Below are positions 5,101 through 50,589 of a stretch of DNA of 64,000 nt, piece by piece. Below the pieces are notes generated by a model. It was not told the origin of the DNA and did no database searches. It worked only from the letters and a program-made list of their open reading frames with translations. The DNA is from Polyangiaceae bacterium (GTDB lineage: Bacteria; Myxococcota_A; Polyangia; Polyangiales; Polyangiaceae): the NCBI GenBank assembly GCA_036488725.1, contig DASXHD010000111.1, positions 16,760 to 80,759 on the forward strand. Reading direction: 5' to 3'. Both the position numbers and the translations under genes were made by a program. Within the stretch, counting starts at the first letter, position 1; the number at the start of each line of letters is the position of its first letter.

Positions 5101-8100
5101 AGCGAGCAAGCGGCGCGCGCGTCCCCCGCGCCGGCTGCACGATCCGCGAGGCCCGCGATCGCGTCGATGTACGACTCCGGTTTGCCGGTCTTGGTCGCGA
5201 GGGCCATCGCCGCTTCGTGCGCGGGCGCCGAACCCGGCGTCTCGGCGATCGCCTCGAGCTGCGCGCGGAGAGCCGCCGCCATGTCGCCGAGCGCTTCGTG
5301 CGCGCGCGCGAGCTCGCCGAGCACCTCCGCGCGCGCGGTCGCATCCGACGCGCGCGCGAGACGCGCACCGAGCGAGCGCAAGAGGCCGGCGGTGTTTCCC
5401 CGCGTGCGGAGGGCTTTTTCGAGGCGACGCGCTTCGGCGTCGGACGTCGCAGCGGTTTCGAACGCCGACTCGAGGATCTCGCTCGCGCGCTCGCTTTCGC
5501 CGCGCCGCTCGGCCAGCGCGCTGAGCTCGACGAGCACCTCGCTGCGAAGCACCGGCGCGTCGTCGTCCGCGCGGCGAAGCACCGCGAGGAGCGCGCGATA
5601 CGAACGCTCGGCCTTGTCGAGCTGTCCGTCGTCGCGCGCGAGCTCGGCGACCATGCGCAAAATCTCGGGGTTCGCCGGGTCGATGCGCGTCGCGGCCTCG
5701 AGCTCGGCGAGCGCTTGCGCGCGCTCCCCGATGCGGAGGTGCAGCCGCGCGAGATGGAAGTGCACGGTCGCGCGCTCTTTCGGCCGCCGGCCGGCGAACG
5801 AGTCGATCATGTCGCGCAGGAGCGCGCGCGCGTCGTCGGGACGCTTGGCGTCCTGGAGCGCTTCGGCGAGCCGCAGCTTGAGCGGGCGATCGTCGGGCGC
5901 GAGCGCGCACGCTTGCTCGAGCAGCGGCACGGCTTGCTCGGCCTCGGCGCACTTCGTGAGAAAAATCTCCGCGGCCTCGACGAGCAGCGCGCGCCGCTCG
6001 TCGTTCGACTTGGCCTCGGCCGACTGGCGCGCGACGAGCTGAGCGAGCGGCGCCCACTTCTCCGTGCGCCGGTAAATCGCCGCGAGGCGCGAGGCGACCT
6101 CCGGCGGAGAGTCGGCGGCGCCGAGCGCGGCTTCGAGACGCTCCTGCGCGTCGGCGTCGCGCGCCGCGCTGACGTACGCATCGGCGAGACGCACGATGAC
6201 GCGCGCGCGCTGCTCGGGGAACTCGCGCACGAGCCGGTCGAGATGCGAAGCGGCGTCGACCCAATCTTTTTGTTGCTCGTGAATGCGCGCGATGGCGTCG
6301 AGCAGCGGCGCGCGAAGCTCGAGCGCGAGGCTTCGCTTGTAATGCGCGAGCGCCATCGCGAGGTGACCGAGCTTCTCTTCGGCGATGCTCGCGGCGCGCG
6401 CCCAGAGCTCGACGGCCGAGAGCGCGTCGCCTTCTTGCTCGGCGAGCGCGGCCTGCTCGGCGCAGAAACCGGCGAGCTCGTCCCAGCGGCCCGCGCCCTC
6501 GAGCGTCTCGGAGAGGACGAGCGTCGTTCGCGGATGGCGCGGCGCGTCCACCAAGTTCGCGCGCAAGAGCGTCGTCGCTTCGTCGACCCGTCCGAGCTCG
6601 CGTTCGAGGAGAGCGGCGTCGAGCCTGTGAGCGACGCGGTCGTCGGCGCGCTCGGCGACCTCTATCTGCTTGCGGCGAAGCGCGAGGAGATCCTCTTTTC
6701 GTCCGAGCGCCGCGTAGACCTCGCCGAGCCGGCGCGCGGCCTCGTCGTCGCGCGCGTCTTCTTCGAAAAGGCTCGCGTAGAGACGAAGCGCCGCCTGCAT
6801 GTCGCCGACGCGATCGAGCGCGGTTTTGCCCGCTTCGTGCAAGAGCTCGCGCGATCGCTGGCGCGAGAACGGCAAGCGCGCCGAGCTCTCGAGGAGCTCC
6901 ACGATGCGCTCGGCATCGCCTTCTTCGTTGTGGACGCGCAGCAGCTCGGCGAGCGACCACTCGACGTGCTCGCTCGGGTGAACCGACGAACCGACCGAAG
7001 GCGGCGCGTCGTCGAGCGCTTGTGTCGTGCTCGGCGGATGCTCGTCGCCCGCGTTCCATCGCTCGGCCGCGAGCTTCAAGAGACGATCGAGGATCGTCTT
7101 GGCGAGCCCGCGATCGACGACGACGCGCGCTGCGACCTCGGCGGCCTCGCGCAGCAAGTCGGGATCGCCGCCCGTCGCCTGCGACAAGCGCAGCAAGCTG
7201 TCGATGAGCGGACGCCCGCGATGCCGACGCTGGAGCTGCGCGAGCTGCGCGAGCAAACGCGTGTCGGTCGCGTCGTGCGCGAGCGCACGCCCGTACGCGG
7301 TCTCCGCCGCCTCGGCGTCTGCGCGCCTGTCGCGATGCCACGCGGCGAGACGCGCCTCGAGATCGCGCAGCGCCTCCTTGGCCAAGTCGGTGCGCTGACC
7401 GATCGCCGCTTCGAACGCCGCCGTCAGTGCGTCCCACCCTGCGTGCGCCGACGCGGCCTCCTCGAGCGCTTGCATCAAGCCGTCGTCATGACCGCCCGCG
7501 AGCGCCGCACGATCGAGCACGATCTTCGTCGCTGCATCCCAACGCCCGACGCGCGCTGCGACGCGAATCACGGCGAGCGCGGCGGCTTCGTTCGTCGGGT
7601 CGTCGTTCGCGACGCGTGTATGTTGCACGAGCGCGCCGCGCGGATCGTCGAGCCTCGTCTCGAGGAGCGAGCCGAGCGTCGTCCGCAAGCGAATCACGTC
7701 GGCGTCACCCGCGGGGCGAGAGCCTTCGAGCGCTTCGAGCACGACACGATGCGCATCGGCGAGCGCGCGATACGCGTCCGGCGCGCCGGACATCGCCGCG
7801 ACGCCCGCGCGACGCTCGGCGATCGCAGCGACCTCGGACGCTCCTTGCGCCGTCGTGAACGCTTCGCGCGTCGCATGGAACGCTGCCTCCGCGTCGCCCG
7901 CGCGATTTTCGAAGAGGTCGGCGGTCTCGAGCAGGCTCGCGACGCGCTCGGCGTCGTCCGTCGCGAGGCGGAGCCGCTGCGGCAAGAGCGCGACGGTCGC
8001 TGACCAAGAGTCAGTCGCCGCGTGGTCCGCCAAGAGGACGTCGAGCGCGCCGCGCGCCGCCGCCGTGACGTCGAGCAGCGCCGTCAGACCTTGGGCCGCG

Positions 8101-30855: not shown

Positions 30856-31016
30856 AAGTACCTCCGTTGTGGTGGTGCGAGTACGCGTCGCAAAAAAATC
30901 CGTTTCGCGTCGATCGAAAAAAGATCGATCCGCGCGCCGTTTCGGCGCGTACGCGCGCCTCCTCTTCGGCGCATCGCGGATTTCCGCGCGGCATGCGCGC
31001 TGCAACGTCACGGCGC

Positions 31017-32984
31017 ATGACCGACACACGCGAGCGCGACATCCTCGTCGCGACCAACGAGTATGCGTACGTCCAAGATCTGACGAAGGGCGACATCGTC
31101 CTTTACGTCGGGCCCACGAAGATCAGCTTGTCGAACACCGAGCGCCTCGTCGATTACCAGCACGGGCGCTTCGTTCCGATTCGCGCCGACGAAGGTCAAG
31201 CCGTCGCGCTCTTCGCGACCGCGACTTCGTCGCAGTACATCGTGCTCGAGAATCCGCCGAAAGATCCCGCGGTCAAACCGACGAAAGGAAACAACAGCGC
31301 GGTGGAGCTCCGCGTCGGGCGCAAGATCGTCGTGCCCGGGCCGGCGACGTTTCCGCTTTGGCCCGGTCAGCGCGCGCGGGTCGTCGACGGGCACGCGCTT
31401 CGCGAGGACGAGTATCTCGTCGTGCGCGTGTACGACGAAGGTCACGCGCAACCGATCGGTACCGAGCTCATCGTGCGCGGCACCGACACGAGCTTTTACG
31501 TTCCCGAGACGGGCCTCGAGGTCGTCCCCGCGTCGGGCGGCAGCTACGTGCGCAAAGCGCGGCGCTTGCGACGCGGAACGGGATTGCATCTTCGCGTCGT
31601 GAAGAGCTTCGTCGCCGGAGCGGCGGAGATTTTTCCCGAGGGTCGCTACGAAGCGGGACAAGACATTTTCATCGCCGACCGCGAAGGGTTCTTCTTTCCG
31701 ACGGCGAGCGTCGAGATCGTCGGCGAGATTTTGGCGATTCCGCTCGGCGAGCGCGAGGGCATCTACGTGCGCGACATCGCGACCGGGCGCATCGCGACGG
31801 CGTCGGGACCGACCAATTTTCTGCCGGATCCGACGCGCGTGGAGATCGTCGCGCGCGCGCTCGACGAAGAACGCGCCGCGCTCTACGGCGTCTCGAAGGA
31901 CCGCAGCCCGACGCGCGCGCTCGCGATTCACGTTCCGTCGAGCTTCGCCGTGCTCGTCACCGCCAAAGACAAACGCGAGGTCGTGCGCGGCCCGCAGACG
32001 CGCGTGCTCGACTACGACGAAGACCTCGAGGTGCTCGAGCTCTCGACCGGGCGCCCGAAGAGCGGCGAAAAAACGCTCCGCACGTGCTTTCTCCAAATCG
32101 AAGGCAACAAAGTCTCCGACGTCGTTCGCTTGAAGACGAGCGACCACAACGAGATCGAGGTCGCCGTCTCGTATCGCGTGTCGTTCGTCGGACCGGACGA
32201 GACGCGCTGGTTCAACGTCGAAGATTACGTCGGGCTCCTCTGCGATCACGCGGGGTCGCTCTTGCGCGGCGCGGCGCGCGCGTCTTCGATCGAAGCGTTT
32301 TATCAAAACAGCACCGAAATTTTGCGAACGGCGATCCTCGGCGAGAAGCGCGAAGGCGAGCCGCGGCCCGGCCGGCACTTCGAGGAAAATGGAATGTGGA
32401 TCTACGACGTCGAAGTGCTCGACGCGCGCATCCTCGATCCCGAGGTGCAGACCCTCCTCTCGGGCGCGCAGAAGGACGCGATCGTCGCCGACGTGACGCG
32501 CCGGCAAGAGCTGCTCGAGCTCGAGACGCAGCGGCTCAAAGAGCAAGTGCGCCGCGCGATTTGCGACGAGCAATCGCAGACGATGGGCGCCGAGGAGACG
32601 CGCGTCGCGAAAAAGCGCGCGGTCGACGTCGCGACGGCCGAAGCCGCGGTCGCGGTGACCTCGGTCGCGGAGGATGCGCGGCTCGCGGCGAGAGAACGCG
32701 AGCACGAGCTCGACAAGAAGATGCTCGACGCGCGCGTCGGCGCGTTCCGCGAGCAGATGGCGGCGCTCGCGCCCGAGCTCGTCGCGACGCTGAAGACGCT
32801 CGGCCACCAAACGCTCGCGGCCGAGCTCGCGAAAAGCGTTTCGCCGCTCGCGATCCTCGGCGGAGAGAGCGTCACCGACGTCGTCGAGCGCCTCCTCGGC
32901 GCGCTGCCGATCGGCGCCGACTCGACCGTCGGAAAGCTGCTCGCGTCGAAAAACGGGAAGGAGCATCGCCTCGAGGAGCGTTAG
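31017..32984 (+). CDS. major vault protein (MVP) homolog (vault repeats + shoulder + cap-helix coiled coil)
   Basis: Direct motif matches to eukaryotic MVP: the N-terminal vault repeat (ours NEYAYVQDLTKGDIVLYVGPTKISLSNTERLV vs human [31 protein letters not shown]); IPLGEREGIYVRDIATGRIATASG vs [31 protein letters not shown] vs LSAGRPK; QNSTEILRTAILG vs KNSARIIRTAVFG; a long C-terminal coiled coil like the MVP cap-helix. 655 aa (human MVP 893 aa); no signal peptide. Confidence 0.8.
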   Translation: MTDTRERDILVATNEYAYVQDLTKGDIVLYVGPTKISLSNTERLVDYQHGRFVPIRADEGQAVALFATATSSQYIVLENPPKDPAVKPTKGNNSAVELRVGRKIVVPGPATFPLWPGQRARVVDGHALREDEYLVVRVYDEGHAQPIGTELIVRGTDTSFYVPETGLEVVPASGGSYVRKARRLRRGTGLHLRVVKSFVAGAAEIFPEGRYEAGQDIFIADREGFFFPTASVEIVGEILAIPLGEREGIYVRDIATGRIATASGPTNFLPDPTRVEIVARALDEERAALYGVSKDRSPTRALAIHVPSSFAVLVTAKDKREVVRGPQTRVLDYDEDLEVLELSTGRPKSGEKTLRTCFLQIEGNKVSDVVRLKTSDHNEIEVAVSYRVSFVGPDETRWFNVEDYVGLLCDHAGSLLRGAARASSIEAFYQNSTEILRTAILGEKREGEPRPGRHFEENGMWIYDVEVLDARILDPEVQTLLSGAQKDAIVADVTRRQELLELETQRLKEQVRRAICDEQSQTMGAEETRVAKKRAVDVATAEAAVAVTSVAEDARLAAREREHELDKKMLDARVGAFREQMAALAPELVATLKTLGHQTLAAELAKSVSPLAILGGESVTDVVERLLGALPIGADSTVGKLLASKNGKEHRLEER

Positions 32985-32994
32985 ACTGAGCGAC

Positions 32995-34503
32995 GTGCCC
33001 AAGACGGTCTTCGCCGCGCTCGCGCTCGCGTTCGCCGCGGTCTTCGCGGCGTGCGGCAAGACTCCGCCGAGCGGTGCCGACGCGGCCGCGCCGATCGCGA
33101 CGACGTCGGCTGCGCCTTTCGTCGTTCCCACCGTGACGTGGGACGCGAAAACGCGCGCCGACGCGATCGCGGCGGGAAAATCGGTGCTCGAAAAAAACGA
33201 GTGCCGCCGCTGCCACGAGATCGACGATCTCCCCGCGCCCGTTCGCCCGAATCACTGCACGAGCTGCCACGAGTTTCTCAAAGGCCTCAAGCCGGGCGAG
33301 AAACAATACGAAGAGATCGCCAAGCGAAATGGCCGCGAGTTCATCGAGCGGTATCAGCGAAACATCGTGCACCTCATCAAGGTGCCGAACCTCACGAACG
33401 TCGGGCGCCGCGTGCGCGCGGATTTCATCGCGAAGTTCTTGAGCGAGCCGTTCGATCAGCGGCCGACGCTCGAAGAGAGCATGATTCGCCATCATCTCTC
33501 GGACGACGACATCAAAGCCGTCGCGCGTTACTTCGCCGCGGTCGCGAGCGCGCCCGATCCCTACGCGGCCGATTACAAAGCGCCCGAACTCGGCAGCCGG
33601 CCCGAACAGACGCGCATCGACAAAGGCAAGCAGCTCTTCTTGTCGCGCGGGTGCACGGCGTGTCACACGTTCGGCAACCTCGACACCGGCGTGCCGCGCG
33701 CCGCGCTCGAGGGCGCGCGCGCGACCAACGAGCTCGCGCCGAACCTCCGCTTCGCGAAAGAGCGCACGCGACCGGACGTGATCGTCGCGTGGATTCAAAA
33801 CGCCGCGCAGATCACACCGGGCACGGTGATGCCGCCGAGCGGCATGACGCGCGAAGAAGCCGAGCTCGTGCGCGATTTTCTCTTCTTCGGCGATCCCGAG
33901 CTCCACCCCGCGCCCGCGACGTACGCCGTCGTGCCGCCGAAGCTTCTCGACCGCGAAGTGCCCTACGAAGAAATGAAGTCGCGCACGCTCGGGAAAGTTT
34001 GCGTTCACTGCCACATGAACGACTACGAAAAAGACACCGGGCCCGGAAACAAAGGCGGCTTCGGTTATCACGGCATCGGCCTCGCGATGCGCACGTACGA
34101 AGCGCTCGTGAACGGCGCGGTCGGCGCGGACGGCAAACGCTATTCGGTTTTGATCGCGAAGAAGGGCGAGTCGATGCCGCCGCTCGTCGCCGCGATGGTC
34201 CAGCGCCGCGTCGAGGAGCAGCGCGACCACGTGCCCGCGTTCGAGGACTACGAGCGCCCCGATTATCCGAAGTCGCCGCCGGCGATTTTGGGAATGCCGA
34301 TGGGCTTGCCGTCGATGACCGACGAAGAGATCTCGATCTTGGCGACGTGGATCGCGCAAGGATGCAAAGGCCCGACGAAAGTGTGGGGTCACCCGGGAAT
34401 GAACGACGGCCTCCTCGTGCAGGACGGCCCGCTGAAGAAAAACCAGGGCTGCGAGCAGCGATCGCCCGAGCACCCGCGCCCGACGTGGGCGTACGACCAG
34501 TAG
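32995..34503 (+). CDS. tetraheme c-type cytochrome lipoprotein
   Basis: GTG start 10 nt after the MVP stop. (M)PKTVFAALALAFAAVFAACG lipobox. Four CxxCH heme-binding motifs (CRRCH, CTSCH, CTACH, CVHCH). Confidence 0.75.
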   Translation: MPKTVFAALALAFAAVFAACGKTPPSGADAAAPIATTSAAPFVVPTVTWDAKTRADAIAAGKSVLEKNECRRCHEIDDLPAPVRPNHCTSCHEFLKGLKPGEKQYEEIAKRNGREFIERYQRNIVHLIKVPNLTNVGRRVRADFIAKFLSEPFDQRPTLEESMIRHHLSDDDIKAVARYFAAVASAPDPYAADYKAPELGSRPEQTRIDKGKQLFLSRGCTACHTFGNLDTGVPRAALEGARATNELAPNLRFAKERTRPDVIVAWIQNAAQITPGTVMPPSGMTREEAELVRDFLFFGDPELHPAPATYAVVPPKLLDREVPYEEMKSRTLGKVCVHCHMNDYEKDTGPGNKGGFGYHGIGLAMRTYEALVNGAVGADGKRYSVLIAKKGESMPPLVAAMVQRRVEEQRDHVPAFEDYERPDYPKSPPAILGMPMGLPSMTDEEISILATWIAQGCKGPTKVWGHPGMNDGLLVQDGPLKKNQGCEQRSPEHPRPTWAYDQ

Positions 34504-34529
34504 CGAAGCCCGCTCCACCCGGCGACGCG

Positions 34530-34697
34530 CCTTCTCGACTTGGTGGCGAGCCTTCTCGACTTGGTGGCGAGCCTTCTCGACTCGGTGGCGAGCCTTCTCG
34601 ACTTGCTGGCGGGCCTTCGCGACTTGCCGGCGGGCGTTCGCGACTTGCTGGCGGGCGTTCGCGACTGGGTGGCGGCACTTCTCGACGGCACGACGAC
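34530..34697. repeat. tandem array of ~7.5 copies of a 21-bp repeat (GCCTTCTCGACTTGGTGGCGA consensus)
   Basis: Seen directly: units at 34530, 34551, 34572, 34593, 34614, 34635, 34656 with progressive point divergence (cttctc to cttcgc to gttcgc; ttggtggcga to ttgctggcgg), plus a degenerate last unit. It lies in the convergent intergenic region between the cytochrome gene and the gene ending at 34741. Confidence 0.85.
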
Positions 34698-34740
34698 ACG
34701 TGGCTTCGTCGCCGCGCCCGGCTCCGAGTCCGCGTCCTCG

Positions 34741-35310
34741 TCACCGCTTCGGAAAGCGGCCGTCGTCCTCACGCAGCTTGCCGGTCGCGCGCCTCTCGGC
34801 GAGCTGCTGCACCCGCGCGGGTGAAACGTAAAACCGCGCGAATTCGTGCGCGGGGAGCGGCCAGCCGCCGGTGCCGTGCTCGACGTCGTCGAAGCACGCG
34901 CGCGCGAACTCGACGTGGAACGCGCTCTCGGCGATCGACAGACATTTCTCGGCGAGCGCGTTCGCGTCTTGGTCGGCGCGCGTTTGTGCGACGAAGCTCG
35001 CGGCGAAGCGAAAGCCGGCGACGTCGAGCGCCATGCGGTACGCGTTGCGAAGCCCGCCGAACGCGTTCGCGCGCGCGAGCTTCACGCGCGCCTTCACCTC
35101 GGCGCTCGGCGGCGGAAGCGGCAGCGGGCGCTCGACGACGTCGTAGTCTTCCCAGCCGGCGCGCCGCAGCTTCTTCGAATACGACGCGAGGTCCGATTCG
35201 ACGCGCTCGATCTTCGCGTCGATGCTCCCATCGCTGCGCACGAAGAGCGCGCCGTCATGTTCGGCGATCCAACGAAAGCGGCCGCCCTTGTAGAGCCGCG
35301 TCCACTTCAC
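34741..35310 (-). CDS. hypothetical cytoplasmic protein
   Basis: GTG at 35310 overlaps the upstream lipoprotein stop (GTGA). 189 aa with coherent composition (VKWTRLYKGGRFRWIAEHDGALFVRSDG...). The R-rich 5' part of ORF 34741..36123 is rejected. Confidence 0.5.
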   Translation of the reverse strand: MKWTRLYKGGRFRWIAEHDGALFVRSDGSIDAKIERVESDLASYSKKLRRAGWEDYDVVERPLPLPPPSAEVKARVKLARANAFGGLRNAYRMALDVAGFRFAASFVAQTRADQDANALAEKCLSIAESAFHVEFARACFDDVEHGTGGWPLPAHEFARFYVSPARVQQLAERRATGKLREDDGRFPKR

Positions 35311-36203
35311 GGCGTCGTCCACGTCGCCGGCAAGTCGAGACGTTGCCCGATCGGATCGTCGAGCTGGGGCAGACGAACCAGATACGCGAGCGCGACCGAA
35401 TTCGGGCTCGCTTGCTCGAGATAAATGATCGCGAGCGAAATCGTCTGCGTGCTCGGCTCCCAAAAGAGCGAGTGGAGCTCGAACCAACCGGGCGACGCGC
35501 ACGTCGTGCAATCGATCACGTTGAAGGGATAGAGCGTCCACGACGTGCTCGCAAAGGTCGCGGTGCCGGGGTTCGCGCCGTCGAAGGCGATCGACGGCCC
35601 GCTGATGGTGAACCCGGAGACGACCTTCGGCGGCGGGATCGACATCGCCGGAAGCGACACGCTCTCGTCGGTCGACTGCGTCACCGAGCTGCAGGTCCCC
35701 TTCGCCGGCAGCTCGGCGGTCGAGGCGATGCCGTCGGTGCTCTCGTAATAGACGAACGCGAGATTGGTATCGTTCGCGCAGGTGATCCACGCGAGGACGG
35801 CGCGGTCCGGCGTCATGCCGACGATTTCGAAATCGCGCTCGCCGGTGAACGCTCCGCCGTCGCCGGTGCCGGGCGGCGTCGAGGTGCTCGTGTAGAAAAA
35901 CGCGGGCGTCGTCTCGCCGTGGAATTGGATCGTGCCGACGCCGTGCGTGATCGCGATCGCGCCGAGCTCGGCCGCGCCGGTGCCGTCGAACGAAACGTCC
36001 TCGGCGACGGTCCACGTGGCTTGCGTCGCGGGCACGTCGATCGTCGTGCTCGCGTCCGGCGCGCCCAGCGCGTCGGTGGACGCGTCGCCGGCGTCGGTCG
36101 TCGTGTCGTCGGCGGACGAGCACGCCGCGAGCGCGAGCAGCGCGAACGCGAGCGCCGTCCGTGCTCGCGACGTCCCGCCTGCGGCGGATCCGTCGACTTT
36201 CAC
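35307..36203 (-). CDS. hypothetical lipoprotein (Thr/Ser-rich)
   Basis: GTG 36203 overlaps the OPT transporter stop (GTGA). ARTALAFALLALAACSS lipobox. The rest of ORF 35307..37196 upstream is R-rich junk antisense/out of frame to the OPT gene. Confidence 0.55.
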   Translation of the reverse strand: MKVDGSAAGGTSRARTALAFALLALAACSSADDTTTDAGDASTDALGAPDASTTIDVPATQATWTVAEDVSFDGTGAAELGAIAITHGVGTIQFHGETTPAFFYTSTSTPPGTGDGGAFTGERDFEIVGMTPDRAVLAWITCANDTNLAFVYYESTDGIASTAELPAKGTCSSVTQSTDESVSLPAMSIPPPKVVSGFTISGPSIAFDGANPGTATFASTSWTLYPFNVIDCTTCASPGWFELHSLFWEPSTQTISLAIIYLEQASPNSVALAYLVRLPQLDDPIGQRLDLPATWTTP

Positions 36204-49497: not shown

Positions 49498-50589
49498 ATG
49501 AACCGCCTCTTTAAAATCGCCGCCGCAGCTCTCTTCTTCTCCGTCCACGCGCTCGCCGCGCCCGACGCTGGAGCGCCGCCTGCTCCAGAGAAAGTCGCGG
49601 TGCTGCCGTTTTCGGGCGAGGCGCAGAAGAGCGATCTCGAGGCCGCGCGCACCGCGACGATGGGCGCGGTCATCTCGCGCGGCGAGCCGCTCGCGACCGA
49701 GTCGGAGCTCGTGACCGCCGAGACGGCCGCCGCGGGCGCGCCGAACGACACGAAGGCGCAGTACGTCGCCGCGGGAAAAGCGTCGAGCTCGAAGTGGGTC
49801 GTCGTCGGCCACGTGAAACCGAATCCCAGTGGGATTCATGGCTACCATCTCGAGGTCAAAGCGTGCCAAGTCGACACCGGGCGCGTCGAGTCGCTCGCGC
49901 GGAACATCGATCCGACGAAAGCGAACGCGCAAGTCGCCGAGATGCTCGCGCTCCTCTTGCGGCCCGAGGGAATCGCGAATGCGGACATTCCCTGGGAAAA
50001 CGAAATCCAGAAACCGCCGCCGCCGCCGCCCCCCCCTCCGCCGCCTCCGCCGCCGCCTCCTCCGCCGCCTCCGGCGCCGAAACCCGTCGTCCCGGAGCCG
50101 GACCGCGGTTACGGCATTCACGCGCCGTTCGCGATCGGCATCGGGCTCGGCGTCGACGGCGCGTTCGCGCATCCGTCGAGCGGCAACGGGCTCTCGACGT
50201 TCGCGTTCGAAGGGACGCTCACCGGCGAGTGGGCGCCGCTCTCGGCCGAGACGTATTCGAAGCTCCTCCGTGGGCTCGCGGTGCGCGTCGATTTGGGCGG
50301 AAACCTCTACGGTCCAGCTGCGGTGCTGCTCGACGCGGGCGCGCGCTGGGCGATCCCGATCGTGCCGAAGCTTCGCATCTTCGTCGGGCCCGAGATCGCG
50401 ATCGGCGGCTTCTTCGTGACGAGCGGCGATCACGAATCGCGCTTTCTGCTGCGGACCGACGCGTTCGCCGCGATGGGATTTGGCGAGCACGTCCAGCTCG
50501 AGCTCGCGTTCGACGTCCAGAGCGCGTTCGGCGGGAGCGGGGCCATCGTCGCCGGCGGGCCGATGCTCCGCGGGCTCGTCCGTTTCTGA
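49498..50589 (+). CDS. secreted protein with 21-residue polyproline tract and C-terminal beta-rich domain
   Basis: Signal peptide MNRLFKIAAAALFFSVHALA. P21-A-P run at about nt 50013-50084. The C-terminal 170 aa show alternating hydrophobic patterns suggestive of an outer-membrane beta-barrel. Confidence 0.6.
   Translation: MNRLFKIAAAALFFSVHALAAPDAGAPPAPEKVAVLPFSGEAQKSDLEAARTATMGAVISRGEPLATESELVTAETAAAGAPNDTKAQYVAAGKASSSKWVVVGHVKPNPSGIHGYHLEVKACQVDTGRVESLARNIDPTKANAQVAEMLALLLRPEGIANADIPWENEIQKPPPPPPPPPPPPPPPPPPPPAPKPVVPEPDRGYGIHAPFAIGIGLGVDGAFAHPSSGNGLSTFAFEGTLTGEWAPLSAETYSKLLRGLAVRVDLGGNLYGPAAVLLDAGARWAIPIVPKLRIFVGPEIAIGGFFVTSGDHESRFLLRTDAFAAMGFGEHVQLELAFDVQSAFGGSGAIVAGGPMLRGLVRF

Follow-up and report, generated by a model that had tools for sequence, protein, structure and literature searches.

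What is a diverging array of 21-bp direct repeats doing between the 3' ends of two convergent genes in a Polyangiaceae genome? In the 64,000-nucleotide stretch of DNA analysed here (the window, to which all coordinates refer unless a relative is named), an earlier note made from the sequence had described such an array and had proposed for it a role at the RNA or DNA level, such as a structured 3' UTR, an iteron-like protein-binding site or a recombination hotspot, with growth by slipped-strand expansion followed by mutation. The answer to which our analysis points is a more ordinary one, namely that the array is probably a young, lineage-specific, non-coding and neutral minisatellite that grew by slippage or unequal exchange. 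The argument draws on the following features of the locus.

32995-34503, plus strand: c-type cytochrome gene on the left flank, 502 aa, TAG stop (Pfam Cytochrom_C, 1.2e-16)
34504-34740, no strand: the whole spacer, 237 nt, between the two convergent stop codons; missing in the relatives L022 and L025
34508-34528, plus strand: decayed repeat unit 0 (GCCCGCTCCACCCGGCGACGC), 13/21 to the consensus, in register
34529-34675, plus strand: seven well-preserved 21-bp units, based on Tandem Repeats Finder (TRF), the unit listing, the pairwise difference matrix and the Logan assembly
34676-34696, plus strand: decayed repeat unit 8 (CACTTCTCGACGGCACGACGA), 12/21 to the consensus, in register; its first half is counted by TRF
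34697-34740, no strand: non-repetitive remainder of the spacer, 44 nt, matching the consensus in register at 8-9/21, no more than the null range allows
34741-35310, minus strand: small hypothetical gene on the right flank, 189 aa from the GTG at 35310 (193 aa from the GTG at 35322), TGA stop
35324-35340, minus strand: lone inverted copy of the core of the repeat (TCTCGACTTGCCGGCGA), 16/17 nt, in the last codons (3' end) of a lipoprotein-like gene and some 650 nt away from the array

The strongest tandem array in the window, among the 135 rows returned by TRF, lies at 34529-34686 and has a period of 21, 7.5 copies, 89% matches, 1% indels, a score of 202 and the consensus unit GCCTTCTCGACTTGGTGGCGA. 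This bears out the earlier description of about 7.5 units at about 34530-34697 to within a few bases, and all other TRF arrays in the 64-kb window score 104 or less. The consensus 21-mer, allowing three or fewer mismatches, occurs four times in the whole window (GC content 68%), each time within the array, against 0.01 occurrences expected from shuffles. The second-strongest tandem repeat of the window, a (CCG)n or 24-nt repeat at 50014-50079 with a TRF score of 104, probably encodes a stretch rich in proline or glycine.

The units adjoin head-to-tail without spacers between them, and they change along the array in an orderly way. The type GCCTTCTCGACTTGGTGGCGA is seen in units 1-3 and the type GCGTTCGCGACTTGCTGGCGG in units 5-7, with unit 4 standing between the two; unit 1 equals unit 2 exactly, unit 3 is one base off, and the distance from unit 1 climbs to 4 by units 5-7, in line with the directional drift that had been noticed before. 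In the pairwise difference matrix the neighbour-to-neighbour differences run 0-1-3-2-2-2, with the closest likeness always between adjacent units. The two decayed copies were judged against random 21-mers from the window, for which the 99th percentile is 11/21 matches. With one such copy at each end, the array spans about 34508-34696, or some 189 of the 237 nt of the spacer.

Both flanking stops are where they had been placed, at 34501-34503 (TAG) for the cytochrome gene and at 34741-34743 (TGA) for the gene on the minus strand, and the array does lie outside both genes: the JGI gene calls are empty between the pair, and the NCBI accessions of the two flanking proteins are consecutive (HEY1959507 and HEY1959508, in a contig labelled 'MAG TPA: Polyangiaceae bacterium').

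A repeat created or inflated by the assembler was also considered. The region is identical to the JGI metagenome contig Ga0376663_0000141 (L021), and the independent Logan assembly of SRR11834592 contributes two contigs, one on each side, that agree with the window letter for letter and end at 34558 and 34553, both inside the identical units 1-2, as is expected of a k-mer graph. These exact matches from both sides confirm all of the diverged units. The number of identical units is the only assembler-dependent part; the break of the Logan contigs in these units, the one observation that speaks for an artefact, could reflect either a k-mer repeat or heterogeneity. An artefact is nevertheless scarcely believable, since JGI and Logan agree base for base over all diverged units and both flanks, the third assembly (NCBI), compared at the protein level, encodes the same flanking proteins, and a k-mer loop cannot produce diverged units. 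All of the assemblies that carry the locus represent one strain or one nearly identical to it.

A listing of 90% clusters for both flanking proteins yielded P0075 (NCBI) and P0079, a cytochrome at least 90% identical whose contig (L027, ENA ERZ924426, 2389 nt) ends 5 nt past the stop codon, neither of which supplied a second allele of the array; L001 also ends inside the array. That assembly breaks are common here suggests that repeats or hairpins occupy the junction in other strains too.

How old is the spacer? The comparison set comprised 19 loci with relatives of the cytochrome, nearly all bearing the label of Polyangiaceae or other myxobacterial or deltaproteobacterial MAGs, and in 0 of the 19 does the array lie downstream of the cytochrome gene. 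The small gene adjoins the cytochrome gene in two relatives, L022 and L025, whose small proteins are 80% and 65% identical, respectively. The convergent genes of both have no spacer and overlap by 71 nt (2977-3047 in L022 and 961-1031 in L025), and a MAFFT alignment opens in both relatives one clean gap of about 236 nt, between CCGAA and GCGCGTCA, at the position of the window spacer, while the order of OPT, lipoprotein, small and cytochrome genes is otherwise conserved. The cytochrome C-terminus ...WAYDQ* is identical in L022 and reads ...WAFDQ* in L025, so the end of this gene is native. Because the nearer relative (L022) and the more distant one (L025) both have overlapping genes, an insertion in this lineage is most parsimonious, and on these alignments the spacer would have been gained here rather than deleted in the relatives. 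The earlier note had held that a lack of conservation would argue for neutrality, and the relatives that have both genes indeed have neither array nor spacer. As a consequence of the 71-nt overlap, the small protein of L022 and L025 has an additional tail of 25 aa, rich in Arg and Ser, which is nothing but the cytochrome C-terminus read in antisense.

Other relatives carry different sequences at this place. L002, whose cytochrome is 90% identical, has no small gene, and the place of the array is taken there by an AT-rich inverted repeat of unrelated sequence. In L002 (about 7400-7540) and L003 (about 7455-7550), inverted repeats of about 100-140 nt, AT-rich and purine-/pyrimidine-rich in otherwise GC-rich DNA, lie immediately past the stop of the cytochrome gene; they may be insertions of a MITE-like kind or terminators that work in both directions, and no low-GC hairpin comparable to them is present in the window. 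In L010, a long-read MAG contig, the cytochrome gene is followed at about 7610-7820 by some 200 nt that consist almost wholly of C, in all likelihood an artefact of assembly or polishing.

These observations suggest how a neutral minisatellite could have formed. Ancestrally, the small gene and the cytochrome c gene would have been convergent and overlapping by about 70 nt, as they are in L022 and L025; in this lineage about 237 nt now separates the two, of which about 189 nt would derive from one 21-nt unit. A 21-nt seed would have been multiplied by replication slippage or unequal exchange and its copies then mutated, such that the outermost copies are presumably the oldest and most decayed, and the two identical copies at the cytochrome end the newest. 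The gradient of unit similarity fits the slipped-strand growth with later mutation that the earlier note had proposed, and it fits unequal exchange equally well. The sole likely effect would be passive, in that the 3' ends are uncoupled and the small gene stops earlier. We infer both the slippage mechanism and the neutrality, and with them that the array has no sequence-specific function, neutrality being an argument from absence in one strain only. One consideration that weighs against neutrality is the period itself, as 21 bp amounts to two helical turns and seven codons.

Some candidate sources of the seed can be set aside. Neither the ancestral gene junction of L022 and L025 nor the 3' ends of the flanking genes proved a suitable origin, as their similarity to the unit is no better than that of shuffles (p 0.06-0.99), and the spacer shows no similarity to the 154-aa gene of L022, of which it might have been a remnant. 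The 44 non-repeat bases at 34697-34740 match neither the flanking genes nor L022.

A period of seven codons raises the question of whether the array is, or recently was, coding, either as a plus-strand ORF or as the relic of a heptad coiled-coil tail, (VEKARHQ)n, of the small gene beyond its present TGA. All six frames are open across the spacer, which is usual at such a GC content. The two codon-aligned frames, LLDLVAS on the plus strand (codon score 0.345) and VEKARHQ on the minus strand (0.275), look coding-like both in these scores (mean 0.52, sd 0.31 for sense frames in neighbouring genes) and in GC phase; the former shares its phase with the cytochrome gene and the latter with the small gene. 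The Logan gene caller placed a partial 89-aa ORF over the array, though at a contig end. The minus-frame peptide also matches coiled-coil Pfam models (YscO at 3.5e-8), and its heptad positions a (V), d (A) and e (R) are invariant in units 1-7, as would suit a coiled coil, an invariance that was spotted post hoc and has a chance probability of about 0.04-0.15.

Against this, the array offers the minus frame no start codon, and the frame continues for 1.6 kb without a stop, antisense through the cytochrome gene, which makes it a typical high-GC shadow ORF. The plus-strand ORF (34540-34824, 94 codons, MVASLLDLVASLLD...) has only TTG or GTG starts and no Shine-Dalgarno-like sequence, and 84 nt of it lie over the 3' end of the small gene, which is conserved. 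JGI places no gene across the array, and the homologues of both flanking proteins stop at the same residues, without a heptad tail. Among the substitutions that distinguish the units, which are of seven kinds, 0/7 are synonymous in the plus frame and 1/7 in the minus frame, a small sample counted by hand.

Protein searches gave the same picture. The plus-strand ORF found nothing at E<=0.1, and the six frame translations, searched joined together, found nothing at E<=0.01 among the 8000 candidates listed, a search that Arg-rich words may have diluted. An exhaustive phmmer search with the minus-frame peptide, which carries more weight for that reason, returned 67 matches among 1.84 billion representatives; the ten that were inspected are unrelated heptapeptide tandem repeats (for example IPDTRYQ, VEGAPRD, VEKSRRR and VENARHY), so these are repeat-to-repeat matches and not homologues, and we judged the Pfam matches of this frame (YscO, Alanine_zipper and other coiled-coil models) to be compositional. 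A coding heptapeptide ORF in related genomes, which the earlier note had named as the finding that would overturn its view, was thus looked for in the homologues and in the protein searches with a negative outcome. A coding array is unlikely overall, and the relic of a heptad repeat stays a minor possibility.

The gene on whose tail this question turns is itself clearly coding, with a GC3 of 0.82-0.93, and its protein is rare: only six homologues were found among 5.8 billion proteins, with a conserved core that ends at DGRFPK and is followed by short unrelated tails. The family shares the motif FDD-x-EH-x-TGGWP, and the small protein has no Pfam or NCBIfam family match. Its AF2 model (pLDDT 80) predicts an N-terminal beta-sheet followed by helices, and a fold search with this model found no match to a solved structure in the PDB. 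A suspected resemblance to WGR-like DNA binders found no backing in Pfam, NCBIfam or the fold search. An alignment-based scan of metagenome_contigs revealed no further loci of the family. The surroundings of one distant homologue, L023, include AbiEii, kinase and integrase-like genes.

Could the array instead act as RNA, serving one convergent transcript or both as a 3' UTR element, a substitute terminator or a small RNA? It sits in the 3' region common to the two genes, and the long hairpins at the equivalent place in L002 and L003 imply that some 3' element may be needed there. However, whichever strand is folded, the 237-nt spacer is less stable than its dinucleotide shuffles (z +1.60 and +1.12), and the minimum free energy is thus no better than chance in either direction; single-stranded DNA folds of the array are likewise at or below shuffle level. 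Rfam gave no match in the array at E<=1, and consensus scans found in the spacer neither promoter-like sites nor terminator-like sites (a hairpin with a U-tract), their terminator matches falling only outside it. The unit has no self-complementarity beyond chance, and direct repeats of this kind cannot make hairpins like those of the relatives; nor does either strand show the excess of C over G expected of a Rho-utilisation site (C-rich, G-poor; C6 G7 in the plus-strand unit, C7 G6 in the minus). The proposal of a structured 3' UTR accordingly finds no backing, and a role as RNA appears very improbable.

A role in the DNA itself is the other proposal to be weighed, in which the array would consist of 7-9 phased protein-binding sites, iteron- or centromere-like and two helical turns apart, that recruit some DNA-binding protein. 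The R6K gamma origin contains seven 22-bp iteron repeats, and the copy number of the array resembles that of plasmid iteron arrays. The likeness extends to the direct orientation of the repeats and to their period, which nearly equals 2 x 10.5 bp, and a 14-nt core, CGACTTGnnGGCG with neighbouring bases, is best kept in units 1-6, with one inverted core copy 650 bp off. Yet the array lies between convergent 3' ends, with no promoter-like site, in a chromosomal region whose synteny extends to contigs as long as 3.65 Mb. Unlike the iterons of plasmids and phages, it is accompanied by no Rep or other replication gene, partition gene, AT-rich unwinding element or DnaA boxes, the nearest stretch below 47% GC being more than 12 kb away. 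The unit lacks dyad symmetry, the array is missing in relatives with the same genes, and the adjacent small protein shows no sign of a DNA-binding fold or family. Tested in this way, the iteron-like idea did not hold up, and phased binding sites are improbable, if slightly less so than a function as RNA.

The possibility that the unit belongs to a dispersed element fared no better. The 21-bp unit was found nowhere else in the 64-kb window or in about 250 kb of related loci; blastn of the spacer against plasmid and phage collections gave no match; and a pattern spanning the unit junction had 0 matches in metagenome_contigs and viral_contigs, a weak negative in the case of metagenome_contigs, from which the source contig itself was not returned.

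The inverted core copy at 35324-35340 deserves separate mention. Core 16-mers with at most one mismatch occur only twice outside the array in the whole window, and the chance of a near-match this close is estimated at about 0.02. The copy encodes the conserved peptide RLDLPAT, which is the same in L002 and reads RLDMPAT in L022; as the peptide is kept in relatives, this is native coding sequence. The inverted copy may therefore be a coincidence, or it may have served as the template for the seed through a template switch. It could also be conceived as a second site that brackets the small gene, with the 7-9 phased sites at the convergent meeting point forming a roadblock or insulator in place of the relatives' hairpin terminators, an arrangement to which we give very little credence.

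The closest known kind is the bacterial intergenic minisatellite or VNTR, as used in MLVA typing. Like the array, such loci have a head-to-tail unit of 10-100 bp, are intergenic and differ in presence or absence between close lineages, and their adjacent variants are most alike and their ends decayed, which fits slippage. The defining trait of a VNTR is copy-number polymorphism, whereas the array is known here from one strain.

The nearest named family is that of the MIRUs. Supply et al. in 1997 reportedly described MIRU unit lengths that are multiples of 3, with open frames in phase with the flanking genes; the array resembles this in its period of 21 and in open frames that are in phase with both neighbours. 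MIRUs are also minisatellites of a GC-rich bacterium and lie mostly between genes, as the array does (PMC3635867). They differ in having units of 46-101 bp at some 40 dispersed loci, between co-directional operon genes, whose stop and start a small ORF overlaps and where translational coupling is possible, whereas the array has a 21-bp unit at a single locus (across the 64-kb window and the related loci) between convergent genes, where coupling makes no sense. The REP, BIME and MITE families are small non-coding intergenic repeats that, like the array, often lie between convergent genes (PMC3184786), but they are palindromic or have terminal inverted repeats and exist in many dispersed copies, in contrast to the direct repeats, lack of any fold advantage and single locus seen here. 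CRISPR-type repeats have unique spacers between them, whereas the units of the array abut. A literature search for 21-bp repeats in myxobacteria turned up nothing relevant.

The significance of the array is small, and it makes no open question testable. It does offer a clean, small example of a minisatellite arising between convergent genes that overlap in relatives and parting their 3' ends, and it illustrates that in high-GC genomes a repeat with a seven-codon period can pass for coding sequence in more than one frame although it is no gene. It could also act as a strain marker for this uncultured soil Polyangiaceae lineage.

The wider neighbourhood contains a lipoprotein-like gene and then an OPT transporter gene beyond the small gene. 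On the other side, 10 nt before the cytochrome c gene, the window encodes at 30867-32984 (plus strand) a bacterial protein of 705 aa that is homologous to the major vault protein of eukaryotes (Pfam MVP_shoulder 3.5e-27, Vault_3 9.1e-8, Vault_4 1.3e-4), and this pairing of vault-protein homologue and cytochrome is kept in L002, L003 and L004 at 77-83% identity.
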